From Deltaproteobacteria bacterium (GTDB taxonomy: Bacteria > Desulfobacterota > Binatia > UBA1149 > CAITLU01), in NCBI GenBank assembly GCA_016218925.1, contig JACRCR010000140.1:6389-70388 (forward strand): a stretch of 64,000 bases of DNA, written 5' to 3'. Positions within the stretch are counted from its first letter, which is position 1, and each line of letters opens with the position of its first letter. Position numbers and translations under genes: made by a program. The notes under the pieces were generated by a model, which saw only the letters and a list, made by a program, of their open reading frames with translations, searched no databases and was not told the origin of the DNA. Below, piece by piece: positions 24,475-50,331 of the stretch.

Positions 24475-24831
24475 GCCGCAGGCAGCGTAACAGCATCGGC
24501 TGCAGGACAGAACGCCGCGCGATAACGCAGGTGGTACAGTAGCGGCCACGCCTCTGCATCGGGGGCTGCGATAGCGTGCCGGACCGTGACGGTGCGTGCA
24601 CACGGTCACTTCGGCGCGCCGGCGCACGCGGCCGAGCCAGGCCGCGTGAGGAACAGGCGATCTGTGACCTTCGTCACCGATGGGTGGGAATTCTGGATAT
24701 CGGGCGTGGCCGCGGCCTTGCATAAGGGGCGTCCGCCGGAGTAGACCCCTGCTATCGTAAGGAACTGTCCTTCGCTCAACCGGGCACTGCGCCGGGGCGG
24801 TCTCGGGGATTCGTAGGGCCGAGGCGTACCA

Positions 24832-35510: not shown

Positions 35511-36854
35511 TCAATAAAGCCCCGGAATGATCTTTGCCGGCACGCGCCGGCAGTACTCGTCCCAGTCGGCGCCGTACTTGTTGCGACAGCGTTTGTCGTC
35601 GCGCGTGGCGCGATCGGCGAGCAGCAGGATCAGGAAGGTCAGGTAGAAGTACGGCACGAAGTGTTCGAAGCCGGCCGGAATGCTCCAGGCCAGCGCGAGC
35701 GCGATCTCCGGCACGTAGTGGAAGTGGCGCGCCAGTCCCCACCAGCCCGAGGCCAGCAGAAGGCTCTCGTGCTCGCTTGCGTCGGCGGTGGTGTAGCGCG
35801 CGTGGATCAGGTCCGGAGCGCGCCCCCAGACCGTCGTGTTGCCGCCGGTCTCGCGCACGCGCTGGCGCTGCTCATCGGCGGCATAGTTCACGTAGATCGC
35901 GGCCAGGCCGACCACGAAGATGGCTGCCGCAAGCGCCGCCGGCATGTCGTAGGGGCGCAGCACGAGGTACTGCGCGGTCAGTGCGTACACCGCTGGCACC
36001 CAGGCGAGCACGCCCCAGCAGATGTAGTAGCCGAAGCGGTCGTGCATGATGTCGAGTGAGGTGAAGTACCCGCTCTCCCACCAGAAGAACTTCAGCAGAT
36101 ACACGACGGTGATCGCCACCGACACCAGCATCGAATTGCTCACGTGCCCGAACAGCTCGCCCTGCTTGGCCGCGAACGAGCACACGATGATGCTCCATCC
36201 CATCATGCTGATGCGGCAGTTGATGAGCTGCTTGAGGTTGATGCCGAAAAGCTCGGGGTGCAGCTCGACGCCCCAGTAGTAGTCCCAGATGAAATTGCCC
36301 GAGACGCTACGATCTTCGCAGGTCGGCCACACCCGCCCCTTCACGTAGAGAAGCAGACACAGCACCAGCGCGAACACGACGAGGGTGATCAGCATCGGCC
36401 CGAACCGGTCCCACACGACTCCCGCACTGAAGAGCCCCAGACCGTAGGAACAACCGAAGAACAGACCATGGGTGACGAGCCAGGCGGCGATGCCGTTGAG
36501 CTTGTAGCGCGGGCGATTGCCGGACGGCGTGATCGGGCCGAAAAAGTCCTTTCCGGGAAGCCACTGCAACAAGGCGGTCTCGAGCACGACAAAGACCAGG
36601 ATCATCTCTGCGGCGGCCAGGCTCGGCGACGGGAAGTGCGCGGCGACCGAGCGCCAGCCCTTCGCCGTGAGCAGCGGCAACAGCGAGCCGTCAAAGGGCT
36701 CGAAGGTGCAGACGATCCAGAACAGGATCGCGGCGGGCGGGGTCGACAGGATCAGCAACAGCGGGCCGAGGCGCGAGCGGATCAGATCGACCCACGCACC
36801 GTCGCTGCCGGCCGCCCAGGTCGTGAGCTTCTGCGCTGGCGACTCATTCGACAT
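35511..36854 (-). CDS. Sterol Delta7-reductase (7-dehydrocholesterol reductase, ERG4/ERG24 family)
   Basis: 'YKLNG', 'DYYWGVELHP', 'YFTSLDIMHDRFGYYICWG', signature 'LLASGWWGLARHFHY', 'RDDKRCRNKYG..W..YC..VP..IIPGLY'. Confidence 0.93.
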   Translation of the reverse strand: MSNESPAQKLTTWAAGSDGAWVDLIRSRLGPLLLILSTPPAAILFWIVCTFEPFDGSLLPLLTAKGWRSVAAHFPSPSLAAAEMILVFVVLETALLQWLPGKDFFGPITPSGNRPRYKLNGIAAWLVTHGLFFGCSYGLGLFSAGVVWDRFGPMLITLVVFALVLCLLLYVKGRVWPTCEDRSVSGNFIWDYYWGVELHPELFGINLKQLINCRISMMGWSIIVCSFAAKQGELFGHVSNSMLVSVAITVVYLLKFFWWESGYFTSLDIMHDRFGYYICWGVLAWVPAVYALTAQYLVLRPYDMPAALAAAIFVVGLAAIYVNYAADEQRQRVRETGGNTTVWGRAPDLIHARYTTADASEHESLLLASGWWGLARHFHYVPEIALALAWSIPAGFEHFVPYFYLTFLILLLADRATRDDKRCRNKYGADWDEYCRRVPAKIIPGLY

Positions 36855-36932
36855 CTGGATCCCCGCGGCGCCGCACTCTCGCGTGCGGGGGCGCGTGGGT
36901 CAACAGCTGCGCGGTCACCAGGCGCCGGTCGT

Positions 36933-36946
36933 ATGATTTTTGTCAT
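36933..36946. promoter_or_regulatory. Crp/Fnr-type palindrome ATGAT-TTTT-GTCAT (site 1)
   Basis: In the divergent promoter between the sterol reductase and the oxidase operon; the 21-mer 36928-36948 matches 42659-42679 at 17/21 positions. Confidence 0.7.
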
Positions 36947-37036
36947 GGCCGGGTGCGCGCATCTGGTGTCTTGATGCCCACTGGGCGACCCCGGTCACCG
37001 CTTCGGTGTCCGGAAGGGCTGGTCCGGGAGGTATCG

Positions 37037-37198
37037 ATGGCCACGACGCACGACCCACAGCGGCAGATTCCGCTCGGACAGAGGCTCTACGACCGGCCTT
37101 TTCTGCTGCTCGGCTTCGGCCTCGTGGTGATGTTCGCGTTCTACACGATCTGGGGACTGCTCGAACTGATGTGGCTGCCGGTGGCCACGCTGCCGTAA
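37037..37198 (+). CDS. Small single-TM protein, probable accessory subunit (IIa-like) of the heme-copper enzyme
   Basis: 53 aa, RBS GGAGG, one hydrophobic helix, first gene before subunit II. Confidence 0.7.
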   Translation: MATTHDPQRQIPLGQRLYDRPFLLLGFGLVVMFAFYTIWGLLELMWLPVATLP

Positions 37199-37210
37199 CG
37201 GGGGAGGGAG

Positions 37211-37798
37211 ATGGAAGAACTGCACAGTGCACTGGTGGCGCCCCGCGGCATCTGGTGGAAGGCGGCCGGCCGCCAGGAGAGGATCTGGGTCACCGTCTCG
37301 TTCGTGTGGTGCATGATCCTGTTCGCGATGATGCCGCTATGGCACATCAAGGGCGGCCAGAATCCGTCCGGGATCCGAGCCAGGGTCGAGCCCGAGGCGT
37401 TTCGGCGCCGCGTCGATCAGTTCATCGCCGACTACAAGATCGGGTCGGAAGCGGGGGTTCCGTTGGTCGCGCCGCCACCCGGTTCCGACGTCTATCTGCT
37501 CGCGCGCATGTGGCAGTGGTATCCGGCGCTGGTGCTGGAAGAGGGCAAGACCTACGTGCTGCATCTCTCCTCCATCGACGTCAATCACGGGTTCAACCTG
37601 CAACCCTTCAACGTGAACTTCCAGGTGGTGCCCGGCTATGACTACGGGCTGCGCATCACGCCCAACCAGGCCGGGGACTATCGCGTGATCTGCAACGAGT
37701 ACTGCGGGATCGGGCATCACCTGATGACTGGCAAGATCCTCGTGAAGCCGGCCGGTAGCGCGGCCGTCGCGCCGGTCGCCCAAGGGGGTACGCGATGA
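37211..37798 (+). CDS. Heme-copper oxidase subunit II with CuA site (B-family/eNOR type)
   Basis: One TM, cupredoxin domain 'SSIDVNHGF' and 'CNEYCGIGHHLM'. Confidence 0.93.
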   Translation: MEELHSALVAPRGIWWKAAGRQERIWVTVSFVWCMILFAMMPLWHIKGGQNPSGIRARVEPEAFRRRVDQFIADYKIGSEAGVPLVAPPPGSDVYLLARMWQWYPALVLEEGKTYVLHLSSIDVNHGFNLQPFNVNFQVVPGYDYGLRITPNQAGDYRVICNEYCGIGHHLMTGKILVKPAGSAAVAPVAQGGTR

Positions 37799-39522
37799 GC
37801 GCCGCCGCAGCCGTCGCCGCCGTGTTTCGCCGCTGCCCGGTTACCGGTCTGAAGATCGATCGGCACGCCGAGAACCTGATCAAGGTCAACGCCGTAATCT
37901 CGATCGTCACGCTGCTGGTCGGAGTGATCGCGGCGATCGGTCTGGTGCTCACCCGCTGGCAGGCCGTGCACCTGCTGCCGGTGGACTGGTTCTACCGGCT
38001 GCTGACCGCGCACGGCCTGAACATGCTGATCTTCTTCATTCTCTACTTCGAGATGGCGGTGCTGTACTTCGCCGGACCGGTCATGCTCGGGTGCCGCGTT
38101 CCGACGCCGAGGCTGGCCTGGGGCTCGTTCGCGCTGATGCTGGCCGGAACGCTGATCGTCGAAGTGATGGTGTTCTCGGGCAAGGCCGACGTGCTGTTCA
38201 CGTCGTACCCGCCGCTCAAGGCCGATCCTTGGTACTATCTCGGCATCATCCTGTTCGCGGTCGGCGCGCTGATCGTCACCGCGATCTTCATGGCCACGCT
38301 GGTGGTGGCCAAGCGCGAGCACACCTACGAAGGTTCGGTTCCGCTGGTCACCTTCGGTGCGCTGACCGCGGCGATCATCGCGATCATCACGCTGCTGCAC
38401 GGCGCGGCGATCTACATCCCGGCGCTGGCGTGGTCACTGGGGATCATCACGCTCGATCCCGAAGTCTACCGGCTGCTGTTCTGGGGTCTCGGCCATTCGT
38501 CGCAGCAGATCAACGTCGCCGCGCAGGTTTCGATCTGGTACCTCCTTGGCGGTCTCACCGTCGGCGCGGTGGTGGTCAACGAGAAGATCAGCCGCACCGC
38601 CTTCGTGCTCTACGTCGGGTTCATTTCGATGGCATCGGCACACCACCTGCTGGTCGATCCTGGCATGGGGCCGGCGTGGAAAGTGTGGAACACCAGCTAC
38701 GCGATGTATCTGGCGGTACTGGCCAGCATGGTGCACGGTTTTACCGTGCCGGCCGGGATCGAGACCGGGCTGAGACTGCGCGGCTTCGTCAACGGAACCT
38801 TCGAATGGCTGCGCAAGGCACCGTGGAGCGATCCTGGATTCGCCGGCCTGATGCTGTCGCTGGTGATCTTCGGATTCATCGGCGGCATCACCGGCGTGAC
38901 GATGGGGACCGAACAGATCAACATCCTGGCCCACAATACGCTGCGCGTCCCCGGTCACTTCCACGCGACCGTCGTCGGTGGCACCGCGCTGTCGTTCATG
39001 GCGGTGACCTACTACCTGATCCCGCTCATCTTCCGCAAGAAAGTCGCGCTGTGGAAGCTGGCCAGGATCCAGCCGTATCTGTTCGGGATCGGCATCACGA
39101 TCTTCTCGATCTCGATGACGTTCGCCGGGATCTTCGGAGTGCCGCGACGCCACTGGGACATTTCGTTCGCGCAGGCGCCGTTCAAGTACGAGTTTCCGCC
39201 GGCAGTCGACCTGATGCTGGCGCTGACCGCGATCGGCGGATTGATGGCTGCCGCGGCGGTGCTGATCTTCATCGCCAGCGCGGTGATCTCGGTGTTCTTC
39301 GGCGAGAGCCTGGATCTTGCCGCACTGACGCCCGGGATGGCGGGCGTGCCGCAGGGACTGACCAAGCTGCCGCCCCAGCAGTACGAGTCGGAGACGGTCG
39401 CCAAGGTTCACGGCGCCGGAACGCCGGGCACGGTGGTGCTGGTGGCGGTCTTCCTGCTGGTCTTCGTGATGTACTACTACACCAACTGGAAGATGCTTTC
39501 GGTGGTGTGGAAGATCGGTTGA
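37795..39522 (+). CDS. Heme-copper oxidase subunit I, probable eNOR-type nitric oxide reductase
   Basis: Six His ligands (TAHG, GHSSQQ, AHH, GHFH); the His+4 cross-link Tyr of O2 reductases is Gln (HSSQQ at 38494-38508). Confidence 0.85.
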   Translation: MSAAAAVAAVFRRCPVTGLKIDRHAENLIKVNAVISIVTLLVGVIAAIGLVLTRWQAVHLLPVDWFYRLLTAHGLNMLIFFILYFEMAVLYFAGPVMLGCRVPTPRLAWGSFALMLAGTLIVEVMVFSGKADVLFTSYPPLKADPWYYLGIILFAVGALIVTAIFMATLVVAKREHTYEGSVPLVTFGALTAAIIAIITLLHGAAIYIPALAWSLGIITLDPEVYRLLFWGLGHSSQQINVAAQVSIWYLLGGLTVGAVVVNEKISRTAFVLYVGFISMASAHHLLVDPGMGPAWKVWNTSYAMYLAVLASMVHGFTVPAGIETGLRLRGFVNGTFEWLRKAPWSDPGFAGLMLSLVIFGFIGGITGVTMGTEQINILAHNTLRVPGHFHATVVGGTALSFMAVTYYLIPLIFRKKVALWKLARIQPYLFGIGITIFSISMTFAGIFGVPRRHWDISFAQAPFKYEFPPAVDLMLALTAIGGLMAAAAVLIFIASAVISVFFGESLDLAALTPGMAGVPQGLTKLPPQQYESETVAKVHGAGTPGTVVLVAVFLLVFVMYYYTNWKMLSVVWKIG

Positions 39523-39523
39523 G

Positions 39524-40459
39524 ATGTCCACGATGATCGCCGAGATGCCGCTGCGCGGTGACCGCGTGCCGGAAGCAGCCGCTACCGCGGTCGCGATGAT
39601 GACCTGCTGGACGCTGGTGACGGCGGCATGGTGGGCGCTTGCGCTGGCGCAGGTGTCCGACCCGCCTCCGTGGCTGGCGGTGGCCAGATCGGTGTGTTTC
39701 GGCTCGACGCCGAGCGGGCTGCCCGATACCTACGGATGGGTGGTGCTGGTGTGCGGCCCTGCGTCGATGCTCGGCGGGATTCTGGCGGTCTGGGGCCACG
39801 AACTCGTTGCACGGGTGCGGGCTGCGTGGACAGAGCCGCTCGGTCGCGTGCTGCTGGCGGCGGCGGCGGCGGCGGCGCTGTCTGGAATCGGCTGGGCGGC
39901 GGTTCGCATCCATAGCGGATTGCAGATCGTTGCGGCCGACTACGCGCCGCTCGAGGAGGGGCCGCTTCCAGCGACTCATCCGCGGCTCGACAAGGCGGTG
40001 CCGGCCTTCGACCTCGTCGACCAGAACGGGCGCGCATTCACCGATGCGGATCTGCGCGGGCGAGTCACGCTGCTGACCTTCGCGTTCGCCCACTGCCGCA
40101 CCGTCTGCCCGGTCATTCTCGAAGGTCTGCGGCGTGCTGCGGCGGCGGCACACGACCCGCGCATGCAGGCGGTGGTGATCACCCTGGATCCGTGGCGCGA
40201 CACCCCGAGCCGGCTGGCGCAGATGAAGAACGAGTGGGCGCTGCCGGTGGAGACCCACCTGCTCTCCGGCGAGGTCGGCGCGGTGACGCGCGCGCTCGAC
40301 GCCTTCGGGGTTGCCTGGAAGCGCAACGATAACGACGGCGACGTCGTCCACGCGCCGCTGGTCTACGTGGTCGGAGGCGACGGGCTGATCGCGTACGGGT
40401 TCAACAACCCGGCGCCCAACTGGCTGGTCGACGCGACGATGCGGACGGCGGCTCGGTGA
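39524..40459 (+). CDS. SCO family copper chaperone with N-terminal membrane domain
   Basis: CxxxC 'HCRTVCP', 'ITLDPWRDTP', conserved His 'VVHAPLVY'; three N-terminal TMs. Confidence 0.88.
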   Translation: MSTMIAEMPLRGDRVPEAAATAVAMMTCWTLVTAAWWALALAQVSDPPPWLAVARSVCFGSTPSGLPDTYGWVVLVCGPASMLGGILAVWGHELVARVRAAWTEPLGRVLLAAAAAAALSGIGWAAVRIHSGLQIVAADYAPLEEGPLPATHPRLDKAVPAFDLVDQNGRAFTDADLRGRVTLLTFAFAHCRTVCPVILEGLRRAAAAAHDPRMQAVVITLDPWRDTPSRLAQMKNEWALPVETHLLSGEVGAVTRALDAFGVAWKRNDNDGDVVHAPLVYVVGGDGLIAYGFNNPAPNWLVDATMRTAAR

Positions 40460-40472
40460 GCCGCTACAGCGC

Positions 40473-40985
40473 CTACTTCACGACAAAATCGGTGTCATCG
40501 CCTTCGAGAGAAACGATGCGGATGCGGCCCTCGTCGAAGGCGATCCGTCCGTCGAACGCGTAGGTGGGCAGCGGTTTGTCGCTGGCCGCGACCGAGGTCT
40601 CCGGGGCGAATCGCACCGCGACATCGTGATCGCCAGGCGTGACCGCGATCGTGGAACTGTGCGTGATCGGCCGATCGCCGTGAATTCCGGCCGGGCGGCA
40701 ACGCTCGTCGGCCACCTCCACCTCGTCAATTTTCACCTGTAGTCGGTAAGCGACCGGTGTCATCTCGCACGCCGTCGGGCGGCGCATGTGCTGGGGCAGG
40801 CCGGCCAGTTCGTCTTCAGACAGCGTGCGGCAGACCTGCGCGCGACCTGCCGAAGTGCGCAGCGCCAGTTGCAGCAACGAGCCCCGCGTAGGGTCGGAGC
40901 CCTCCATGTGCAGCACCGTGAGCGTTGCAGCCCCGAGCAGCAGTCCGCCCAGCACGCGTCCCGCGCCGACCGCGATCTCAGCCAC
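40473..40985 (-). CDS. Hypothetical membrane-anchored protein coupled to the cytochrome b fusion
   Basis: N-terminal TM; 'VCRTLSEDEL..LPQHMRRPTAC' then a beta-rich domain; GTG overlaps the upstream stop by 8 nt. Confidence 0.65.
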   Translation of the reverse strand: MAEIAVGAGRVLGGLLLGAATLTVLHMEGSDPTRGSLLQLALRTSAGRAQVCRTLSEDELAGLPQHMRRPTACEMTPVAYRLQVKIDEVEVADERCRPAGIHGDRPITHSSTIAVTPGDHDVAVRFAPETSVAASDKPLPTYAFDGRIAFDEGRIRIVSLEGDDTDFVVK

Positions 40986-42594
40986 GACTTGCCACCTGCT
41001 TCGGTTCGCACTGCGTGCCCACCTGCAAGTCGCCGGCTGGCAGGCCCGGCCCGAGCGCGGCCAGGCGTGCGCGGAAACTCTCGATCTCGGCCTCGAGGCT
41101 GCGCCACTCGCCGCGCGAAGCGGCGTGGATCGCCACGCGCCTCTTGTCGACGCGCGCCGGCAACTCCGCCTCGCGGTCGTTGTAGACGCGCTCGTACAGC
41201 CACTTGGGGCCTTCGCGGCACGGCGCGCTGCGCGGCGGGCACGCAGCTATGAAGACGCCGCCGCTACCGGCGCGCAGCAGCATTTCGATCACGGAAGTAT
41301 GAAGGTTCCCTGCGCACTCTACCGTCATGACGCTGGCACCGGGCAGCGAGGTCAGCCGGGGATCGTCGTGCAGCGGGTTGTGGCGGCAGGCCAGCAGCGT
41401 GAACCCGTCGGCGCGAACGCCGTGCTTCTCGATCAGGTCCTGCGTGCGACGCAGTTGGATGCGTCCGGTGTGCGCTGGTGGTCCTATTCCCATCGGCGCG
41501 CACGAGCCCGCGCAGATGCCGCACGCTACACAGCGCGCCGGGTTCACCCACGAGTAGAACTGCGAGCGGCGACCCGGATCGGGTCGCTCGAGCATCGAGA
41601 TCGCGTCGAAGGGGCAGTCCTTGTAGCAAGTCGTGCAGCCGGTGCACACTTCCGGGTCGGACCACGAGGGCTGCGCCCGTGCGCGTTTGTTCTTCCACCA
41701 CCAAGGCACCGAACACATCAGCGCGGCCGCAGACAGCCACGACGCCAGGTGCACCGCAGGGGAGACCTGCCAGGCCAGCGGCAGCCAGAAGTTGTAGAGC
41801 AGGTCGATCGGAACGTTGCGCGGGATCACCAGCAAGTCGGCGCGCTGGCCGAGCGGGACGCGCAGCACCAGCGCGAGCACCGACAGCACGCCGACCACGC
41901 CGATCGCGAGCGCGCGCGGCGGCGCCAGATGCGGCCGCGCGAGGTTGGCAAGGTGCAGCCACAGCGCCGCGGCCAGTCCCAGCGGCAGACACACGTGCAA
42001 GAACAGGTTCATGAAGAAGAACGACGCCGGCACCGGAGCCAGCCCGGCGAAGGCCCTTCCGATCGGCACCGAGAACAACGGCAGCAGGTCGACGATTTTG
42101 GTGAGTTCGACCGCCACCACCTGGCCCTGCAGGTCCCACGCCATCACCTGACCGGTCCAGCCGCACGCCAGCGTCGCTCCGACCAGCACAGCCCCGCTGA
42201 TCCACGCGCGCGTTCGCGGGCCATGGAAGCGTCCGGCCAGGAACATCTTGAGCGCGTGCAGCAGCGCGGCCGCCATCGCCAGGTCCGCGGCGTAGGTGTG
42301 CAGGGCGCGCACCCAGCTTCCCAGCGGGATATCGGTGTCGATGCGGGCCACCGACTGGTAGGGGTGCTCGATGCTGTAGAACAGGAACAGGAAGATGCCG
42401 GTGGTGATCAGGACCAGGAACGCGACGATCGCCAGCGTGCCGCTCTGGTGCAGCGGGTTGAAGTTCGAGGAGTAGAAACGATCGAAGAGTTCGTCGAGCC
42501 TGGTCACCGCGCTGTCGATCACCGCGACCGTGCGCGACCACGTCGCCGGCCTGGAGTTGGGCAAGTCTGCCGGTTGTGTGGCTGGGCCGCTCAA
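40978..42594 (-). CDS. Cytochrome b(N) + 2x[4Fe-4S] ferredoxin + MvhD/FlpD-like fusion protein
   Basis: Cyt b helices with 'RALHTY...LLHALKMF' and 'MNLFLHV'; CTGCTTCYKDCP and CVACGICAGSC; MvhD-like 'VECAG...GVFIAACP...CREG'. TTG start at 42594 with GGAGG RBS. Confidence 0.85.
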   Translation of the reverse strand: MSGPATQPADLPNSRPATWSRTVAVIDSAVTRLDELFDRFYSSNFNPLHQSGTLAIVAFLVLITTGIFLFLFYSIEHPYQSVARIDTDIPLGSWVRALHTYAADLAMAAALLHALKMFLAGRFHGPRTRAWISGAVLVGATLACGWTGQVMAWDLQGQVVAVELTKIVDLLPLFSVPIGRAFAGLAPVPASFFFMNLFLHVCLPLGLAAALWLHLANLARPHLAPPRALAIGVVGVLSVLALVLRVPLGQRADLLVIPRNVPIDLLYNFWLPLAWQVSPAVHLASWLSAAALMCSVPWWWKNKRARAQPSWSDPEVCTGCTTCYKDCPFDAISMLERPDPGRRSQFYSWVNPARCVACGICAGSCAPMGIGPPAHTGRIQLRRTQDLIEKHGVRADGFTLLACRHNPLHDDPRLTSLPGASVMTVECAGNLHTSVIEMLLRAGSGGVFIAACPPRSAPCREGPKWLYERVYNDREAELPARVDKRRVAIHAASRGEWRSLEAEIESFRARLAALGPGLPAGDLQVGTQCEPKQVASRG

Positions 42595-42663
42595 GGGGAC
42601 CTCCGCGACGCGGCGCCGCGGTTCTTCGTATCGATCAGGTAGCGCAATCGGCGTCGTCGTCGT

Positions 42664-42677
42664 ATGACGGATGTCAT
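42664..42677. promoter_or_regulatory. Crp/Fnr-type perfect palindrome ATGAC-GGAT-GTCAT (site 2)
   Basis: In the divergent promoter between the cytochrome b fusion and DUF2249; same flanks (GTCGT...GG) as site 1. Confidence 0.72.
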
Positions 42678-42735
42678 GGGCCCGGCGCGGCTCATTTCGT
42701 AGGTTCGATAATCGTTGCGACCGAGCGGATCCGAC

Positions 42736-43023
42736 ATGATCTACCAACCCGACGACGAGCGAGTGCGCTTCTGGCAGGACTCGACCGACCCGATGCGATC
42801 TCATCTCGACGTTCGCGAACTGCTCGAGGACGGCGGCGAACCCTACGCGATCATCATGGAGTGCGTGAACAGGCTGCAAGGCGGCGAGTGCGTGGTGCTG
42901 CATGCGATCATGCAGCCGCGCCCGTTGCTGGCCCAACTGGGTAGGATGGGTTTCGCCTGCGACGTGCGCCACGTTGGCGCCGATCACTGGGAAGTCGACA
43001 TCAGCGCAAGGGCGCAGGCCTGA
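42736..43023 (+). CDS. DUF2249 domain protein
   Basis: 'LDVRELLEDGGEPYAIIMECVNRLQGGECVVLHAIMQPRPLLAQLGRMGF...HWEV' fits the DUF2249/TusA-like pattern. Confidence 0.75.
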   Translation: MIYQPDDERVRFWQDSTDPMRSHLDVRELLEDGGEPYAIIMECVNRLQGGECVVLHAIMQPRPLLAQLGRMGFACDVRHVGADHWEVDISARAQA

Positions 43024-43040
43024 CGGCCCGCGCGGCCGGT

Positions 43041-44501
43041 TCAGGCCTGCGCCCCGGCGCGCGTGGTTCCGTTTCGCAGGCGGCTGTGGCGCACGCCGTA
43101 GGCGCTGTAGATCACCAGACCGATCATCAGCCACACGAGCAACCTCAGCCAGTTGGCCCAGCCGAGCGAGAACATCAGCAGCAGATTGGCGCCGATCCCG
43201 AGCAGCGGCACCGCCGGCACCAGCGGCGTGCGGAACGGCCGCCGCACTTCGGGTCGCGTGCGGCGCATGATCAGCACGGCTGCGCACACGATCACGAACG
43301 CGAACAACGTTCCGATGTTGACCAGCTCCGAGAGCACCTTGAGGGGAAACAGCGCGGCCACTGTCGCGACGAACGCGCCGGTCAGGACGGTCGACAGATA
43401 CGGAGTGCGAAATCGCGGGTGGATTGCGGCGAAGATCGCTGGCGGCAGCAATCCGTCGCGCGCCATCGCCAGCAGCACGCGGGCCTGGCTCAGCATCATG
43501 ACGAGCAACACGCTGGTGATGCCCGCCACCGCACCGAGCGAGATGATGAGCGTGGCGGTGCCCAGCCCGTAGCGGGCGAAAGCCTCGGCCAGCGGTGCGT
43601 CGATGTTGATCTGGGGCGTCGGGACCATGCCGGTCAGTACGCCCGCCACCGCGATATAGAGCAGGGTACAGACTCCGAGCGAGCCGAGCAGCGCCAGCGG
43701 CACGTCGCGTTCGGGATGGCGCGCCTCTTCGGCGTGGGTGCTGATCGAATCGAACCCGATGTAGGCGAAGAATACGTAGCCGGCGCCTCGCAGGGTGCCG
43801 CTCCAGCCCTGTGGAAAGAACGGCTGCCAGTTGGCCGGGTCGACGTGAGGGATGCCGGCAAGGATCACGAACATCTCGACGCCGAGCTTGAGTGCGACGA
43901 TCAGCACGTTGAGTCGCGAGCTCTCGCGAATTCCGATCACCAGCACGACCGTGAGCGCGACCACGATCGCGGCGGCGGGCAGGTCGAAGACGATCGGCAC
44001 GGAGCCGATGTGCCACGCCTCGGCCAGCACCTGCGGTGACGCGCTGAACGGATCGATCGACAGCGGCCCCGGCACGCGGATGCCGAACAGTCCCAGGAAG
44101 GATTGGAAGTAGTGCGACCAACCGTGCGCCACCGCGCACGAGGCCACCGCGTACTCGAGGACCAGATCCCAGCCGATGATCCACGCGAACAGTTCGCCGA
44201 GGGTGGCGTACGCGTAGGTGTAGGCACTGCCTGCCACCGGGATCATTGCGGCGAACTCCGCGTAGCACAGACCGGCCAGCGCGCAGCCGAGCCCCGAGAG
44301 CACGAACGAGAGCATCAGCGAGGGCCCGGCGTAGTCGCGGGCAGCCAGGCCGGTGAGTACGAAGATGCCGGCGCCTATGATCGCGCCGACTCCGAGCGCG
44401 GTCAGCGACACCGGACCCAGCACGCGGTGGAGGCGGTCGTGCGCCTGCAGCTCGGCATGGAGCAACTCGACGGACTTGCGGGCGAAGAGGGGGCTGGCCA
44501 A
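43041..44501 (-). CDS. APC-family amino acid permease (cationic amino acid transporter-like)
   Basis: 'LGVGAIIGAGIF', 'CYAEFAAMIPVAGSAY', 'FFAYIGFD', 'MARDGLLP'. Confidence 0.95.
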   Translation of the reverse strand: MASPLFARKSVELLHAELQAHDRLHRVLGPVSLTALGVGAIIGAGIFVLTGLAARDYAGPSLMLSFVLSGLGCALAGLCYAEFAAMIPVAGSAYTYAYATLGELFAWIIGWDLVLEYAVASCAVAHGWSHYFQSFLGLFGIRVPGPLSIDPFSASPQVLAEAWHIGSVPIVFDLPAAAIVVALTVVLVIGIRESSRLNVLIVALKLGVEMFVILAGIPHVDPANWQPFFPQGWSGTLRGAGYVFFAYIGFDSISTHAEEARHPERDVPLALLGSLGVCTLLYIAVAGVLTGMVPTPQINIDAPLAEAFARYGLGTATLIISLGAVAGITSVLLVMMLSQARVLLAMARDGLLPPAIFAAIHPRFRTPYLSTVLTGAFVATVAALFPLKVLSELVNIGTLFAFVIVCAAVLIMRRTRPEVRRPFRTPLVPAVPLLGIGANLLLMFSLGWANWLRLLVWLMIGLVIYSAYGVRHSRLRNGTTRAGAQA

Positions 44502-44574
44502 AGTGCGCGCAGTCTACACGCGGCCGCTCATCGCGCAACGTTGCAGTGCACACATGACAGCGGCCCGCACCCTC

Positions 44575-45267
44575 TCACGAGCCTCCTGCAAGCTGGGCCA
44601 TGGCGCGCCGATCGCGCACGCAAAGGCCGCGATCGTCCTGGCCGATCAGCCCGTCCTTCTGCCAGCGGCTCATGATGCGGATGACGGTCTCGATGCGTGC
44701 GCCGACCATGTCGGCGAGATCCTGACGGGTCAGCGGGATCGGCAGGTAGACCGGGCCGGGCTGGTCCGGCGACTTGGCACACAGGGCCTGCAGAACCCTG
44801 GCGATGCGGTACTCGACTCCGCCTCCGCCAAGATCCTCCATGCGTCGCTGCATCACGCGCATGCGCAGCGTCAGATCGCGGATCAGCGCGATGGCGGTTC
44901 CCTCGAAGCGCTCGAGGTAGGTGAAGTAGGCTTGGCGCGGCATCACCCATACGGTCGCGTCCTCGTGGGCGGAGGCCGAGGCCGGATAGCCGGTGCCGTC
45001 GATGACCGCGACCTCTCCGATGGCATCGCCGAAACGGAAGATGCCGAGAATCAACTCGCGCCCGCTCTCGAGCGAGCGAAAGACTTTCACCGCGCCGCTT
45101 TCGACCAGCCACAGATGCGAAGAATCCTCGCCCTCCAGGAACAGCATCGCGCCCTTGGCGTAGGAGCGCCGCGATAGCTGCTCGGCCAGCCAGGTGAGTG
45201 CCTGCTGCGACACGCCGCTGAAGCGCGGTATTCGGCTGATGGTGCCGATGGAGTCGGGGTCGATCAC
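44575..45267 (-). CDS. Crp/Fnr family regulator (no FNR Cys cluster; DNR/HcpR-like)
   Basis: cNMP-binding fold 'LFLEGE...GAVKV...GDAIGE', HTH 'LTRQDLADMVGARIETVIRIMSRW'. Confidence 0.92.
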   Translation of the reverse strand: MIDPDSIGTISRIPRFSGVSQQALTWLAEQLSRRSYAKGAMLFLEGEDSSHLWLVESGAVKVFRSLESGRELILGIFRFGDAIGEVAVIDGTGYPASASAHEDATVWVMPRQAYFTYLERFEGTAIALIRDLTLRMRVMQRRMEDLGGGGVEYRIARVLQALCAKSPDQPGPVYLPIPLTRQDLADMVGARIETVIRIMSRWQKDGLIGQDDRGLCVRDRRAMAQLAGGS

Positions 45268-45276
45268 GCTGTCACA

Positions 45277-46806
45277 TCATTGGGGCCGCGGCGACGTGTC
45301 GGCCGTCGGCCAGCCTCCGGCAAGTGCCTTGTAGAGCGCCACCGCGTCTTCGGCAACGGCGCCGCGGCTCGATGCCAGTGCATCCTCGGCGTAGTACAGC
45401 GAGCGTTCGGCATCGAGCACCTGCAGGAACTCGACCACACCGCCGGCGAACAGTTCGCGCGCGAGGTCGGCGCCGCGTTTCTCCGCTTCGGCGGCGCGGC
45501 CCAGTGCCTCGGTTCTCTCGCGTTCGGATCCGAGTGCGGTCAGCGCCGTTTCGACGTCTGCCAGCGCTCTTCGCACCGCGTCCTCGTAGCGCGCGGCGGC
45601 CTGCTCGGTGCGGGCGCTGTGCACCTCGACGTTGGCGAGCAGACGCCCGGCGTCGAAGATCGGCCAGCGCATCCCCGGGCCGACCAGCCAGAAGCGGCTG
45701 TCGCTCGTGAGCAGGTTGCCGGTCTGCTGGCTCTGGAAGCCGAAGCTGCCGCTGAGCGAAAAGCGCGGCAGCAATTCGGCGCGCGCAACCCCGATGCGCG
45801 CGGTCGCGGCGGCCAGTTCGCGCTCGGCGCGTCCGAGGTCGGGGCGGCGCAGCAGCAATTGCGACGGCAAGCCGGCCTCGACCAAGCGCGGTGGGGTCGG
45901 AACCTCATGGGCGGCCTCGAACTGCCGGTCGAGAGCGCCGGAGTCGGCGGCGACGAGTACCTCCAGGCGGTGCATGGTCGCGCTTCGCCGGCTGCGCAGC
46001 GCCGGCACATCGGCCTCGGTGGCGGCCAGCCGCGCCTGCGCTCGCGCGACGTCGAGCTCGCTCGAGACGCCGGCGTCGTGGCGCTGGCGTATCACGCTCA
46101 GCGTGTCGGCTTGCGCGGCCATGTTGTGTTTGGCGATCGCGAGCCTCGCATCGAGCGTGCGCAGCGTGATCACTTCACGCGCGGTCTCGGCCGCCAGGCT
46201 CAGCAACGCGTCGCCGTATGCCGCTTCGGCGGCCTGCAGTTCGGCGTTGGCCGCCTGCACCGAGCGGCGCACGTGTCCGAACAGGTCGACTTCCCACTGC
46301 GCGTCGAAGCCGGTCTGGTACAGATCGATCGACTGGCCCGGCAGCACTGCGCCCGGCAGGGTGCCGCCGCCGGTGTTGGTGCCGGTGCCGAACCCCTCGA
46401 GAAAACCGTGCTCGCTCATGCGCGAGTTCGAGTAGGAGGCGGTCGCGTCGAGCTTCGGCCACAGACCTGCCCCGGCTACCGCGCGCAGCGCCCGTGCTTC
46501 GCGTACACGCGCGGCGGCTTCGCGTGCTCTTGGCGTGGCGCGGACGGCACGCTCTACCAGCGCCGCGAGATCGTCGTCGCAGAAGCCGCGCCACCAGCTC
46601 TGCTGCAGCGCCGCGTCGTGTTGCGCGCCGGCCGCTTCGCCGCCGCGCGGTGCTTGCTCGCTCGTACCCGCAGTCCATGCCGCCGGCGAGTCGATCTGCG
46701 GCCGCTGATAATCCGGACCTACCGCGCAGCCTTGCACCGCCGCCAGCGCGCACAGGCACGCGATACTCCCTGCGATCGCGACGGCGCGCAAGGCGGAGCG
46801 CTTCAT
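45277..46806 (-). CDS. NodT/TolC-family efflux outer membrane lipoprotein
   Basis: Lipobox 'VQGCAVGP', 'FDAQWEVDLFG', 'PSQLLLRRPD', 'LYKALAGGW'. ATG at 46806. Confidence 0.92.
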   Translation of the reverse strand: MKRSALRAVAIAGSIACLCALAAVQGCAVGPDYQRPQIDSPAAWTAGTSEQAPRGGEAAGAQHDAALQQSWWRGFCDDDLAALVERAVRATPRAREAAARVREARALRAVAGAGLWPKLDATASYSNSRMSEHGFLEGFGTGTNTGGGTLPGAVLPGQSIDLYQTGFDAQWEVDLFGHVRRSVQAANAELQAAEAAYGDALLSLAAETAREVITLRTLDARLAIAKHNMAAQADTLSVIRQRHDAGVSSELDVARAQARLAATEADVPALRSRRSATMHRLEVLVAADSGALDRQFEAAHEVPTPPRLVEAGLPSQLLLRRPDLGRAERELAAATARIGVARAELLPRFSLSGSFGFQSQQTGNLLTSDSRFWLVGPGMRWPIFDAGRLLANVEVHSARTEQAAARYEDAVRRALADVETALTALGSERERTEALGRAAEAEKRGADLARELFAGGVVEFLQVLDAERSLYYAEDALASSRGAVAEDAVALYKALAGGWPTADTSPRPQ

Positions 46807-48410
46807 TCCAGCACCACTGCGGCTGCGCCCGCGGTGCTCGGCGGCTTGCGGATCAGCAGCATCATCGGGACCACGATCAGGAAGCCGATCGACATCATGC
46901 GGAACACGTCGACGAAGGCCAGGGTGCGGGCCTGAGCGCCGAGCATCTGGTAGATCGCGGCCTGAGCCTGCGCGGTAGCCTGCGCGAGATCGGAGGTATG
47001 GGCCGAGAACGCCGCGGTGAGCTGGGTCATCCACGCGCCGTAGGCCGGATCCAGCGGCGTGGCGTGCGCCACCAGCAGACTCTGATGGACCTGAGCCTGG
47101 CGCGCGATCATCGTAGCCATCGACGCGATTCCGACGCTGGCGCCGATGTTGCGCGCCAGGCTGATCAGGCTGGAGGCCGCACCGCGGTCGGCGGTACGTA
47201 TGAAAGCGTATGAGACGGTGCTCAGCGGCACGAAGATGAAAGCCATCCCGAGCCCCTGCAGCATACGCGCGACGACGATGTCGCCGAAGGCGACGTCGAG
47301 GCTGAAGCGTCCCATCGCGAACAGTGCCGAGGAGACCACCAGCGCGCCGAAGATGATCATCTTGCGAGCGTCCAGGTGTGCGACCAGCCAGCCGACGATC
47401 GGCATGAAGAACATGATGACGAGTCCACTCGGCGACACCGCCATGCCGCTGAGCATCGCGGTGTAGCCCATCAGCGTCTGTGTGAAGAGCGGAATCAGCA
47501 CGGTGCTGCCGTACAACACGAACCCGAACAGCAGCGTTGCCGCGACCGACAGCGCGAAGTTGCGTTCCCCGAGCAGCCGCAGGTCAACCACCGGGTCCTC
47601 GTGGCGCAATTCCCACCAGATCGTGAAGACGAACGCGGTGACCGACGCCACCGCCAGCGTGCAGATGAAGCGCGACGCCATCCAGTCGTAGCGCTCGCCG
47701 AGGTCGAGGATCATCTGCAGCGCGCCGATCGCCAGCGCCAGCCCTCCCAGTCCCATCCAGTCGATCGAACTGCGCTCGGCGCCGTGGCGTCGCGGCAGGA
47801 ACGGAGGGTCGGTGATGAAGCGCGACGACAGCAGCAGCGACAGCACGCCGATCGGCACGTTGATGAAGAACACCCAGCGCCAGCTCGCGTTGTCGGTGAT
47901 CCAGCCTCCGAGCGTGGGCCCGATCACCGGCGCCGCCACCACCGTCATTCCGTAGACCGCCATGCCCATCCCGCGCTTGGCCAGCGGAAAGGTGTCGACC
48001 AGGATCGCCTGCGTGGAGGGCTGCAGTCCGCCGCCGCCTAGCCCCTGCAGCAGCCGGCACAGTACCAGCACCGAGAGGTTGGGCGCCAGTCCGCACAGCA
48101 GCGAGCTGAGCGTGAACAGTGCCACGCACGCGAGGTAGAAGTTGCGCCTGCCGAACAGTGTGGACATCCAGCCGCTGATCGGCAACACGATCGCATTGGA
48201 GACCAGATAGGAGGTCAGGATCCAGGTGCTGTCTTCGACGCCTGCGCCGAGGTTGCCGGCGATGTGTGGCAGCGCGACGTTGGCGATGCTCGTGTCGAGG
48301 ATTTCCATGAAAGTTGCCAGCGTGGCCACGACCGCGATCAGCCACGGATTGAAAGGGGCGTGGAAGTGCTCCACGCCCGACTCGTCGCTCGCGGCTGCAG
48401 CCGCGCTCAC
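46803..48410 (-). CDS. DHA2/EmrB family MFS efflux permease
   Basis: 'MEILDTSIANVALPHIAG', 'GPTLGGWITDN', 'WRWVFFINVPIG'; about 14 TMs. Confidence 0.95.
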   Translation of the reverse strand: MSAAAAASDESGVEHFHAPFNPWLIAVVATLATFMEILDTSIANVALPHIAGNLGAGVEDSTWILTSYLVSNAIVLPISGWMSTLFGRRNFYLACVALFTLSSLLCGLAPNLSVLVLCRLLQGLGGGGLQPSTQAILVDTFPLAKRGMGMAVYGMTVVAAPVIGPTLGGWITDNASWRWVFFINVPIGVLSLLLSSRFITDPPFLPRRHGAERSSIDWMGLGGLALAIGALQMILDLGERYDWMASRFICTLAVASVTAFVFTIWWELRHEDPVVDLRLLGERNFALSVAATLLFGFVLYGSTVLIPLFTQTLMGYTAMLSGMAVSPSGLVIMFFMPIVGWLVAHLDARKMIIFGALVVSSALFAMGRFSLDVAFGDIVVARMLQGLGMAFIFVPLSTVSYAFIRTADRGAASSLISLARNIGASVGIASMATMIARQAQVHQSLLVAHATPLDPAYGAWMTQLTAAFSAHTSDLAQATAQAQAAIYQMLGAQARTLAFVDVFRMMSIGFLIVVPMMLLIRKPPSTAGAAAVVLE

Positions 48411-49555
48411 CGAACTTTCACCGCCGGGACCACCGACATGCCGGCCCCGAGCAGGTAGCGCGACGGATCGGGCTGCTCGTCGAAGACGATCTTGACCGGA
48501 ACGCGCTGCACCACTTTGACGTAGTTGCCGGTGGCATTCTCGGGCGGCAGCAGGCTGAAGCGCGACCCCGCGCCGGCCTGTATGCTCTCGACGCGACCGC
48601 GGAACGTCGCGTCGGGATACGCATCGACATGCAGCTCGGCGATCGCCCCCGGCCGCACGCCTTCGAGCTGGGTCTCCTTGAAGTTGGCCACCACCCAGCG
48701 CTCGGCGGGCAGCAGAGCCATCAGGATCTGTCCTTTCTGGACGTAGTTGCCCGGCTGTACGTTCTTGCGCGTGATGCGGCCGGCTTCGGGCGCGACGATG
48801 TGCGTGTATGAGACTTCGAGCGTGGCCGCATCGACCGCTGCGCGCGCACGCGCAGCAGCGGCCTCGGCGCGTGCCACATCGGCCTCGCGTACGGCGAGTT
48901 CGTGCGGCGCGGCCTCGGCGGCGGCCAGGCGGCCGCCGGCGGCCGCTACTGCCGCACGCGCCGCGGCTACGTTCCTGCGCGCCGCCTCCAGGCGCGCCTC
49001 TGCGGTGCGCGCTTTGGACTGGGCCGCCTCGCGCTGCTGGTCGGAAATCGCGCGATCGCTCAGGTGACGGTAGCGCGCCAGGTCCGAGCCGGCCTGCGTG
49101 GACTCGCTCGCTGCGGCGCTTTGCTGCGCTTCGGCTTCAGTGAGTCTGGCGCGTGCGGATTCGAGAATCGCTCCGGCTTCGTCCACCGCCGCAGCGGTAG
49201 TGGTACGCGCCGCTTCGAAGGTCGCGCGCGCGGCGTCGATTTCGGCCTCGGCGAGCCGCAGCGCGGCGCGGGCCTGCGCCAGATCCGCGTCGGCGTCGCG
49301 AGAGTCGATGTCGATCATCGGCTGGCCGGCCTGCACCTCCTGGTTTTCCGATACGTGGACGCCGGCGACGCGACCCGCGATCGAAGGGCTAACCTGCGCG
49401 ACGCGCGCTTCGATGAAAGCGTCGTCGGTAGAAACCCAGGCCCGCCACACCAGCAGGTAGCGAAGTCCGAGGCCGGCGCCGACCAACGCGACGACAATCG
49501 CGACGGCGATCGGCACGCGACCGCGCATCGGCTTGGAGAGCATGTTCGCGCTCAT
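48407..49555 (-). CDS. EmrA/HlyD family adaptor protein
   Basis: 'STDDAF', 'IVAPEAG', 'VVANFKETQL', 'FSLLPPENATGNYVKVVQRVPVKI'. Confidence 0.95.
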   Translation of the reverse strand: MSANMLSKPMRGRVPIAVAIVVALVGAGLGLRYLLVWRAWVSTDDAFIEARVAQVSPSIAGRVAGVHVSENQEVQAGQPMIDIDSRDADADLAQARAALRLAEAEIDAARATFEAARTTTAAAVDEAGAILESARARLTEAEAQQSAAASESTQAGSDLARYRHLSDRAISDQQREAAQSKARTAEARLEAARRNVAAARAAVAAAGGRLAAAEAAPHELAVREADVARAEAAAARARAAVDAATLEVSYTHIVAPEAGRITRKNVQPGNYVQKGQILMALLPAERWVVANFKETQLEGVRPGAIAELHVDAYPDATFRGRVESIQAGAGSRFSLLPPENATGNYVKVVQRVPVKIVFDEQPDPSRYLLGAGMSVVPAVKVR

Positions 49556-50331
49556 CGTTTTCTCCGCGACGCGCTCTCGTCCGGCTGCGGCTGCCGGGCT
49601 CGCGTCTTGGTGTCGCTCGCGCCGCTGGCCGCCGCGTGCGACCGGTCGGTGCGCAGGCCCGCCAGCGAGAACGCCGTGATGTGTTGCGCCAGCGCGTCGA
49701 GGTCGAGGCTCGTACCGGGCGTCATCGCGGCCAGCAACGCACGTGCGCTGCGGTGCACGCTGCACTGGCCCATGATGCTCGCGACGTTCAGTCGCGTGTC
49801 GGCGCAGTCGCCCGGCTGTCCGGTGATCTGCGAGACGATCGCGGCCAGTTCGTGGAACATCGGCTCGGCGACCTCGTCGACCATGACCGCGAACGCGGGG
49901 CCAGGGTCGGCCAGCTCGCGTGTCATCAGGCGTCCGTGCCAGGCCGGACGCCCGCGATCGAGCAGGCGCCTCAGAAAGGTCACGATGAAGCGGTGCAGCG
50001 CGCCCTCGGCATCGGTCCTGGCGAGCGCGGCCAGGCCGTCGATCGGATAGCGTTCGGCCGCGTACTCCTGGGTGCTGCGCAGCACCGCTTCGTAGAGCGC
50101 GGCCTTGGACCCGAAGTGGTAGGCCACCGCCGAGACGTTGGCGTTGGCGCGGCCGCAGATCTCGCGCACCGCGCCGCCGCGGTAGCCGTGCTCGGCGAAC
50201 ACCGCGCCGGCTGCCTCGAGCAGGCGCCGTCGAGTCGCCGCCGCAGTAGCGCCGCCGGCTGCGGCTCCGCGGCGCGTCCTGGGCAGTGCAGGTGTTGTCA
50301 GCGAGGAGCGGGGAGGCCGGCGACGTGGCAT
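49552..50331 (-). CDS. TetR regulator, CecR/DUF1956 type
   Basis: 'TRRRLLEAAGAVFAEHGY...VREICGRANANVSAVAYHFGSK', 'GRLMTRELADP', 'HITAFSLAGL'. ATG at 50331. Confidence 0.9.
   Translation of the reverse strand: MPRRRPPRSSLTTPALPRTRRGAAAGGATAAATRRRLLEAAGAVFAEHGYRGGAVREICGRANANVSAVAYHFGSKAALYEAVLRSTQEYAAERYPIDGLAALARTDAEGALHRFIVTFLRRLLDRGRPAWHGRLMTRELADPGPAFAVMVDEVAEPMFHELAAIVSQITGQPGDCADTRLNVASIMGQCSVHRSARALLAAMTPGTSLDLDALAQHITAFSLAGLRTDRSHAAASGASDTKTRARQPQPDESASRRKR

Follow-up and report, generated by a model that had tools for sequence, protein, structure and literature searches.

The 64-kb stretch analysed here (64,000 nucleotides of a Deltaproteobacteria bacterium of the class Binatia, contig JACRCR010000140.1, positions 6,389 to 70,388; called the window below) contains two copies of a palindromic box, ATGAY-N4-GTCAT, in the divergent promoters of a cluster of putative nitric oxide (NO) genes. 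We propose, with a probability of about 0.8, that a Crp/Fnr-type transcription activator, most probably the dimer of the protein encoded at 44575-45267, uses both boxes as operators, and that this E-x-x-I-R regulator reads the box and activates transcription from position -41.5. It is highly probable, judging from sequence and distribution, that the box is a functional Crp/Fnr-type operator of a nitrogen-oxide (N-oxide) regulon. An earlier sequence-only reading of this DNA had suggested a regulon with variant specificity, and this suggestion is supported by box conservation, by class II spacing, by adjoining E-x-x-I-R regulators and by a motif-first scan.

Two related boxes in divergent promoters

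Two 21-mers had been reported, GTCGTATGATTTTTGTCATGG (36928-36948) and GTCGTATGACGGATGTCATGG (42659-42679), as identical at 17 of 21 positions. Both were found as described, and the mismatches concern the last half-site base and three spacer bases. The boxes, the promoter elements assigned to them and the regulator gene are the following.

36932-36947, box 1, 16-mer TATGATTTTTGTCATG; core ATGAT-N4-GTCAT at 36933-36946, centre at 36939.5
36970-36975, plus strand, putative -10 element CTTGAT of the NO-reductase-like operon, 22 nucleotides (nt) past box 1, which would place the box centre near -42.5
42663-42678, box 2, 16-mer TATGACGGATGTCATG; core at 42664-42677, centre at 42670.5
42700-42705, plus strand, putative -10 element TAGGTT of the DUF2249 gene, 21 nt past box 2, which would place the box centre at -41.5
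44575-45267, minus strand, Crp/Fnr regulator (Pfam) with the recognition helix I-E-T-V-I-R

As the sequence-only reading had stated, each box lies in a short divergent intergenic region. For box 1 this is 36855-37036, between an ERG4/ERG24 gene (minus strand) and the gene for a 53-amino-acid (53-aa) protein (plus strand); the box centre is 97.5 bp 5' of the ATG of the 53-aa gene and 85.5 bp 5' of the ERG4 ATG. Box 2 is found in 42595-42735, between the gene for a cytochrome b/Fe-S/FlpD fusion (minus strand) and the DUF2249 gene (plus strand), with its centre 65.5 bp 5' of the DUF2249 ATG and 76.5 bp 5' of the TTG start of the fusion.

The window has a G+C content of 67%. ATGAY-N4-GTCAT occurs only twice in the whole 64 kb, at these two boxes, for 0.08 occurrences expected from dinucleotide shuffles, and the observed count was reached in 0 of 100 such shuffles. 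The 21-mer with up to three mismatches is likewise limited to these two places in the window (0.08 expected). The looser form TGAY-N4-RTCA has four matches, three of them intergenic.

Two further matches were not retained. A third TGAC-N4-GTCA match, at 24665-24676, reads TGTGA-N6-TCAC, a CRP-like form with G at the discriminator position; it is 161 bp from a TonB-receptor start, has no -10 element at class II distance and was thus not considered a member of the regulon. The CRP-like palindrome to which it belongs (TGTGACCTTCGTCACC, 24663-24678) stands 5' of the gene for this TonB-dependent receptor (24832-26934). In the related locus L053, a TonB-receptor gene followed by a cytochrome cd1 (NirS-type) gene is divergent from a box-bearing NO-reductase promoter. 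A two-mismatch match at 52329 is within coding sequence and was set aside.

Conservation of the box and its consensus

Scanning relatives for the box 5' of nir and nor genes, as had been proposed, gave a positive result. Fifty-one genome loci (L numbers) were fetched by the relatives of the cytochrome b fusion that they encode. The exact motif ATGAY-N4-RTCAT has 24 matches in 828 kb of related loci, versus 3.1 +/- 1.8 in Markov-1 simulations, and most of them lie about 50-150 bp 5' of the 53-aa gene (small53), cytbFus/DUF2249, nirK, RIC and similar genes. The boxes are above background and are kept in orthologous promoters of Binatia, Acidobacteriota, Bdellovibrionota, Eisenbacteria and others. 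Orthologues of box 1 are present 5' of the 53-aa gene in L003, L004, L053, L181 and 10 further loci, and a box with at least 10 of 12 positions in agreement with TATGACnnnnGTCATA is located 73-130 bp 5' of this gene in L008, L014-L017, L022, L028, L029, L038 and L040. Orthologues of box 2 are found in L002-L004, L006, L053, L055-L058, L181 and L182. In most loci the gene module downstream of the box, detailed below, is organised as one co-directional operon with a single box at its head; in the window and in the Binatia loci it is split into two convergent units, each with its own box. One box per transcription unit is the pattern predicted by a functional operator.

That the similarity of the two window boxes is due to chance, or that they are remnants of a local duplication with no regulatory function, is extremely unlikely. 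There are only two copies in the window, and their shared GTCG...GG flanks could suggest a duplication. However, the box is present in orthologous and non-orthologous promoters of at least eight phyla, with differing spacers and flanks, eight-fold over expectation and with a fixed spacing to the -10 element. These are not mis-assembled copies either: GC content ranges from 0.46 to 0.7 among the box-bearing loci for which it was recorded, and protein identity from 35 to 80%.

In 40 non-redundant sites the spacer is unconstrained. Next to the searched core, 75% of the sites have T (A on the other side), despite GC-rich backgrounds. This flanking T/A leads to the consensus T-ATGAC-N4-GTCAT-A, in which the A before TGAC is found in 100% of the compiled sites by construction of the search. 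Full-text literature searches with ATGACNNNNGTCAT and variants returned no description of the box; the only hits were the TTGAC motif of HcpR1 and a Pseudomonas paper on katA that is unrelated. No publication was found on an ATGAC-N4-GTCAT operator or on an E-x-x-I-R clade, subscription journals and regulon databases being outside the coverage of these searches.

Some loci deviate from this pattern. In L024 and L044, other Crp/Fnr-like palindromes are found instead of the ATGAC box, about 75 and 78 bp 5' of the 53-aa gene, respectively; the one in L024 is NnrR-like (TTTGCCGCTCCGCAAA). The same operon thus seems to be under different regulators in different lineages.

Position of the box relative to the promoter

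Putative -10 elements are found at a fixed distance from the box. Of 80 flanks, 23 have TANNNT beginning 21 nt beyond the 16-mer and 6 have it 22 nt beyond, compared with about 0.4 per other offset, and 26 of the 40 sites have it at 21-22 nt in at least one direction. At this same offset, TANNNT is found in 6 of 7 DUF2249 promoters, and TANNNT or NNNNAT in 12 of 14 promoters of the 53-aa gene. The Binatia orthologues L003, L004 and L053 have the hexamer that follows box 1, as YTTGAT/TTGGAT, at an identical offset. With the -10 element at -12 to -7, the box centre is placed in silico at -41.5/-42.5, the class II position of FNR, CRP and DNR. No complete sigma-70 -35/-10 promoter was detected by a promoter scan in either intergenic region, which fits, albeit weakly, with activator dependence.

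This geometry also bears on whether the regulator, once bound to the box, could act mainly as a repressor or as a dual regulator by occluding the -35 region. A site centred at -41.5 overlaps the -35 position, DnrT of Thermus also represses the nqo and fbc operons, and negative autoregulation could be exerted through the boxes that L044, L058 and L125 have 5' of regulator genes. Nevertheless, conserved -10 elements without a -35-like hexamer are the typical architecture of activator-dependent promoters, and the characterised relatives FNR, DNR, NnrR and DnrT are all known to activate nir, nor and nos promoters from this position. A mainly repressing role thus appears quite improbable.

The sequence-only reading had linked the promoter between the sterol reductase gene and the oxidase operon to the regulon. 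This link holds on the side of the NO-reductase-like operon and fails on the ERG4/ERG24 side: no ERG4/ERG24 homologue is found by the module in the 51 related loci, and no class II -10 element is directed towards ERG4, so that control of this gene was rejected.

The regulator and its clade

The 230-aa protein encoded at 44575-45267, whose sequence includes GARIETVIRIMSRWQKDG, matches the Crp/Fnr superfamily models PF00027 (2.8e-20), PF13545 (2.9e-17) and PF00325 (5.9e-9). Its helix, G-A-R-I-E-T-V-I-R-I-M-S-R-W, contains the ETVIR previously pointed out, and the absence of Fe-S cysteines was also correctly noted. The only cysteines are Cys163 and Cys216, with no N-terminal Cys cluster, and neither of them is conserved across the regulator family. 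The 120 closest homologues in the database all share the pattern x-E-T-[VATC]-I-R. When clusters at 50% identity are considered, the 113 nearest representatives have Ile at the position before the Arg in 77 cases and Ser in 25, which indicates a large clade and not a one-off.

Regulator and box occur together from whichever side the search is started. Orthologues with 51-68% identity and an ETVIR helix flank boxes in L002-L004 and L006, and so does, in L044, a member with E-T-A-I-R and 37% identity. Nine loci were obtained via regulator homologues sharing 45-66% identity with the window protein, plus one sharing 41%; in 7 of 9 regulator-homologue loci the adjacent promoter carries an exact box, in one a degenerate box and in one none. 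Conversely, a motif-first metagenome scan with GTATGAC-N4-GTCATAC returned 80 loci. In five of them a Crp-family gene lies no more than 3 kb from the site, and the helix could be read in four: ETTIR, ETVIR, ETAIR and ETIIR. These motif-first regulators show 27-39% identity to the query and adjoin nirK, RIC or hemerythrin genes. The E-T-x-I-R clade appears, on this comparative basis, to control denitrification genes in many uncultured bacterial phyla.

In most loci the regulator is encoded next to a DUF2249 promoter that carries a box. Convergent regulator-DUF2249 pairs with overlapping 3' ends, or 3' ends less than 30 bp apart, are found in L055-L058 and L182, and a tight pair also in L181. 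In loci without DUF2249, the neighbour of the regulator is a RIC or hemerythrin gene (L044, L118, L121, L125). An amino-acid permease gene (43041-44501) is inserted between regulator and DUF2249 in the window. In L058, a second Crp/Fnr paralogue (1303-2016, E-T-M-I-R) is encoded 5' of nnrS and nirK at the same locus as the P0091 regulator, indicating that the clade can occur in two copies per genome.

Several observations weigh against the proposed assignment. No class II -10 element is found towards the cytochrome b fusion (n=5), and control of that unit is presumed from its position. L059 is a regulator locus with no box, and L054 has only CTGAC-N4-GTCAT. In the motif-first scan, 75 of the 80 loci look like chance matches, many of them AT-rich or from gut. 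In most box-bearing loci of Acidobacteriota and Bdellovibrionota, the nearest 10 kb contain no regulator gene. The carriers are all uncultured metagenome-assembled genomes (MAGs) or metagenome contigs. The sensor domain, compared in 116 homologues, contains no invariant His, Cys or Met. Finally, electrophoretic mobility shift assays in Thermus assigned a similar palindrome, CTTGACCNNGGTCATGG, to the Rrf2-type NsrR(Th) (PMC5748679).

This last result, the many box-bearing loci with no regulator within 10 kb and the two E-x-x-I-R paralogues of L058, which make it ambiguous which of them reads which box, could mean that the box is a genuine denitrification operator with another reader, i.e. a Rrf2-type NsrR or a Crp/Fnr paralogue encoded elsewhere in the genome. 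We consider another reader unlikely. A 14-bp palindrome, a TGA-N6-TCA core and placement at -41.5 are hallmarks of Crp/Fnr activators and not of Rrf2 repressors, and the association of the box with E-x-x-I-R regulators holds whether the search starts from the regulator or from the motif. The Thermus palindrome moreover overlaps the DnrT footprint. There is no Rrf2 gene among the annotated neighbours in the window and the fetched loci, where no search aimed at Rrf2 was made.

Regulon content

The genes associated with the box amount, as predicted from sequence, to a denitrification and NO-stress regulon. Boxes are present 5' of nirK in L038 (encoding a NirK-cytochrome c fusion), L058 and L083, 5' of the gene for the ScdA/hemerythrin RIC protein in L044, L118 and L121, and 5' of a hemerythrin gene in L125. 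L058 has three boxes, including those of norC and of a HiPIP gene. Other boxes precede the nosZ-nosRDFYL cluster in L057, napDAB (at napD) in L182 and the gene for a second haem-copper enzyme in L029. DUF2249 is the most constant member of the regulon and the usual convergent neighbour of the regulator.

Genes around the boxes and the NO-reductase-like module

The genes surrounding both boxes in the window are the following.

35511-36854, minus strand, ERG4/ERG24-family protein (sterol reductase family; Pfam and gene calls of the source contig)
37037-37198, plus strand, 53-aa membrane protein, first gene of the box-1 operon, with the ribosome-binding site (RBS) GGAGG upstream
37211-37798, plus strand, haem-copper oxidoreductase subunit II with a complete CuA motif (H...CNEYCGIGHHLM; Pfam COX2 and sequence)
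37795-39522, plus strand, haem-copper oxidoreductase subunit I without the cross-linked Tyr (Pfam COX1 and sequence)
39524-40459, plus strand, SCO1/SenC copper chaperone, last gene of the operon (Pfam, synteny)
40473-40985, minus strand, conserved 170-aa hypothetical protein encoded downstream of the cytochrome b fusion (no Pfam or NCBIfam match)
40978-42594, minus strand, fusion of an N-terminal cytochrome b with a 2x[4Fe-4S] ferredoxin and an FlpD/MvhD-like domain (Pfam, gene call)
42736-43023, plus strand, DUF2249 protein (Pfam)
43041-44501, minus strand, amino-acid permease (Pfam and gene calls)
45277-49765, minus strand, OEP, MFS and HlyD efflux genes (Pfam and gene calls)

The cytochrome b fusion has a TTG start at 42594 with a GGAGG RBS and is transcribed divergently from DUF2249. 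Two minus-strand open reading frames overlapping it, 40978-44553 (1191 aa) and 41264-42541 (425 aa), are high-GC artefacts, the real gene being 40978-42594. None of the regulator, DUF2249, the 53-aa protein, SenC and the 170-aa protein reaches the cut-off of an NCBIfam family.

Subunit I keeps the haem and CuB His ligands (HH and HFH motifs) and has GHSSQQ in place of GHPEVY. The lack of the cross-linked Tyr is a criterion for NO-reducing members of the haem-copper superfamily (PMC11214002), and norSY-senC-orf1 is the sNOR cluster of ammonia oxidisers (PMC11214002, PMC4940428), with which the window operon has in common the gene order subunit II / subunit I / senC. A Tyr-less subunit I with its His ligands, a CuA subunit II and a linked senC are thus all present, and the box-1 operon probably encodes an sNOR-type NO reductase, the database names for subunit I being generic. 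The name "NO cluster", used in the sequence-only reading, is fair in view of the Tyr-less subunit I and this gene order. The cytochrome b fusion and the 170-aa protein may constitute the electron-input side of the enzyme, and possibly correspond to the 'orf1' of norSY-senC-orf1.

Together with the 53-aa protein, COX2, COX1 and SenC, these last two genes form a six-gene module present in about 45 loci of at least eight phyla, from the set L002-L052, L053 and L181, with hosts among Binatia, Acidobacteriota/Thermoanaerobaculia, Bdellovibrionota, Gemmatimonadota, Kiritimatiellia, Myxococcota, Latescibacterota, Eisenbacteria and others. Identity across phyla is 64-80% for subunit I. In about 40 loci the module begins with the gene for the 53-aa protein (46-71% identity). 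In L008 (5020-6637, a Thermoanaerobaculia MAG), about 1.6 kb is inserted between the genes for the 53-aa protein and subunit II.

The GTG start of the window regulator is located 9 nt after the stop of the OEP gene that ends the HlyD/MFS/OEP operon, and no box is found 5' of the regulator. It may thus be co-transcribed with the efflux genes in this organism.

Proposed mechanism

In CRP the discriminator residue R180 goes with G in the site, and in FNR and DNR S212 goes with T. In the window regulator, each I-E-T-V-I-R helix of the dimer would read one TATGAC half-site, the conserved Glu and Arg contacting the TGA core as in CRP and FNR. The discriminating positions are hydrophobic, with Ile/Val instead of R180 of CRP and V208 of FNR, and Ile instead of S212 of FNR and G184 of CRP; correspondingly, the outer base is A, compared with T in FNR sites and G in CRP sites. 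Helix and operator also vary together elsewhere: Thermus DnrT has P-E-A-V-S-R and the Thermus nir, nor and nrc promoters contain CTTGACC-NN-GGTCATGG, and HcpR1 has Ser or Pro at position 180 with TTGACnnnnGTCAA. The bound dimer is predicted to replace the -35 element and to recruit RNA polymerase, i.e. class II activation. Its targets in the window would be the operon for the 53-aa protein, the CuA subunit, the Tyr-less subunit I and SenC, as well as DUF2249. From the shared box 2, the divergent genes for the cytochrome b/Fe-S fusion and the 170-aa protein would probably also be switched on.

Signal perception

The regulator has YPASA where CRP of Mycobacterium tuberculosis has RTSSA, and its position 180 is Ile or Val. 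It scores 75.6 bits with the NCBIfam CRP model (cut-off 266) and 52.2 bits with the FNR model (cut-off 228), and the curated CRP, FNR, FixK and NtcA models are all far below their cut-offs. With the Arg that binds the cAMP phosphate replaced and the curated models below cut-off, sensing of cAMP and sensing through an Fe-S cluster are excluded. Haem sensing by the regulator, which the sequence-only reading gave, beside NO sensing, as a probable property, is without sequence support, no His, Cys or Met ligand being conserved in the sensor domain, although haem might still be bound as in DNR. We assume, with low confidence and from the regulon content alone, that the signal is related to N-oxides. 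Candidates are NO, a different N-oxide and low O2, and our confidence in any one of them is equally low. The relay might pass through a DUF2249 or hemerythrin partner rather than through a haem of the regulator. The pairing of the regulator with a box-controlled DUF2249 protein, together with the feedback exerted by DrpA in Thermus, makes a relay through the DUF2249 partner a serious possibility.

A broader and rather doubtful hypothesis can be formulated from this pairing. The E-T-x-I-R clade could be the denitrification and NO-stress master activator of many uncultured phyla (Binatia, Acidobacteriota, Bdellovibrionota and others) and not sense the signal itself. It would form a two-protein module with the box-controlled DUF2249 protein encoded almost invariably beside it, or else a hemerythrin or RIC protein, and modulation of the regulator would come from this partner on binding of NO, O2 or nitrate; the Ser-to-Ile change would be a transferable specificity switch turning the outer base from T to A. 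By analogy, and just as tentatively, such a module would generalise the poorly understood DnrT-DrpA/DrpB circuit of Thermus.

Significance

Detailed knowledge of how denitrification and N2O production are controlled is limited to proteobacteria (FNR/ANR, DNR, NnrR, NsrR, NorR) and Thermus. The operator TATGAC-N4-GTCATA at -41.5, combined with the helix E-T-x-I-R, could provide a testable code for nap, nir, nor and nos regulons in uncultured soil and sediment MAGs. The predicted co-regulation of a Tyr-less haem-copper enzyme and its cytochrome b/Fe-S partner with nirK and nosZ supports the view that sNOR-type enzymes reduce NO. A with Ile would also represent a third discriminator state, beside G with Arg180 (CRP) and T with Ser212 (FNR), useful for specificity engineering. 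If true, the Ser-to-Ile switch would serve to engineer orthogonal Crp/Fnr operators.

Comparison with known regulators

FNR of Escherichia coli resembles the window regulator in its two-domain fold, in the E...R contacts to the TGA core and in activation from -41.5. It differs by its Cys cluster, by Ser212, which is Ile in the window protein, and by its box, TTGAT-N4-ATCAA versus ATGAY-N4-RTCAT.

The nearest published motif is that of HcpR1 (Geobacter, Desulfuromonas and Desulfotalea), predicted by Rodionov et al. in 2005 as wyTTGACnnnnGTCAArw (PMC1274295). The GAC-N4-GTC core is common to both, and specificity is likewise explained by a substitution in the recognition helix. In contrast, the outer base of the HcpR1 motif is T and not A, the window boxes being A/T-inverted with respect to TTGACnnnnGTCAA at this base, and HcpR1 has R180 changed to Ser or Pro with E-x-x-S-R retained. 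Its regulon comprises hcp and frdX in anaerobes; no hcp gene was noticed by the examined boxes, where hcp was not searched for.

DNR of Pseudomonas and NnrR of alpha-proteobacteria have an E-x-x-S-R helix. Their operators, CTTGATnnnnATCAAG (DNR) and TTGCGnnnnCGCAA (NnrR), differ from the window boxes. The DNR structure 3dkw is among the best structural-database matches of the window regulator (E=2.6e-16), weaker than CRP of M. tuberculosis. The kind of regulon is the same, with nirK or nirS, nor, nos, nnrS and dnrN/RIC, and their 14-bp palindrome with N4 spacing at a class II position corresponds to what is found for the window boxes (PMC1274295).

In Thermus thermophilus, DnrT, a Crp-family protein belonging to the DNR subgroup, also has no Fe-S cysteines and activates denitrification genes. 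The YPASA motif of the sensor domain is common to DnrT and the window regulator, with only 30% identity between the two proteins. DnrT differs by its P-E-A-V-S-R helix (Ser and not Ile), by a box that begins with T and not A, and by its partner, the GAF protein DnrS, which is absent from the window system. The Thermus nir, nor and nrc promoters contain a TTGAC-N4-GTCAT(GG) palindrome 50-73 bp 5' of the start codons, overlapping the DnrT footprint (PMC5748679). On plasmid 4 of T. thermophilus NAR1 (L060), DnrT with its E-x-x-S-R helix is encoded at 5995-6648, and CTTGACCNNGGTCATGG, which overlaps its footprint, is a palindrome of Crp/Fnr form; its assignment to NsrR(Th) may deserve re-examination. 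DnrT also activates the DUF2249 gene drpA, and DrpA, which depends on DnrT, feeds back on DnrS/DnrT (PMC6282519). The window regulator has in common with DNR, NnrR and DnrT a predicted operator 5' of nir, nor, nos and NO-stress genes, with a centre near -41.5 in silico, and would be their functional analogue, a master activator of denitrification or of the N-oxide stress response.

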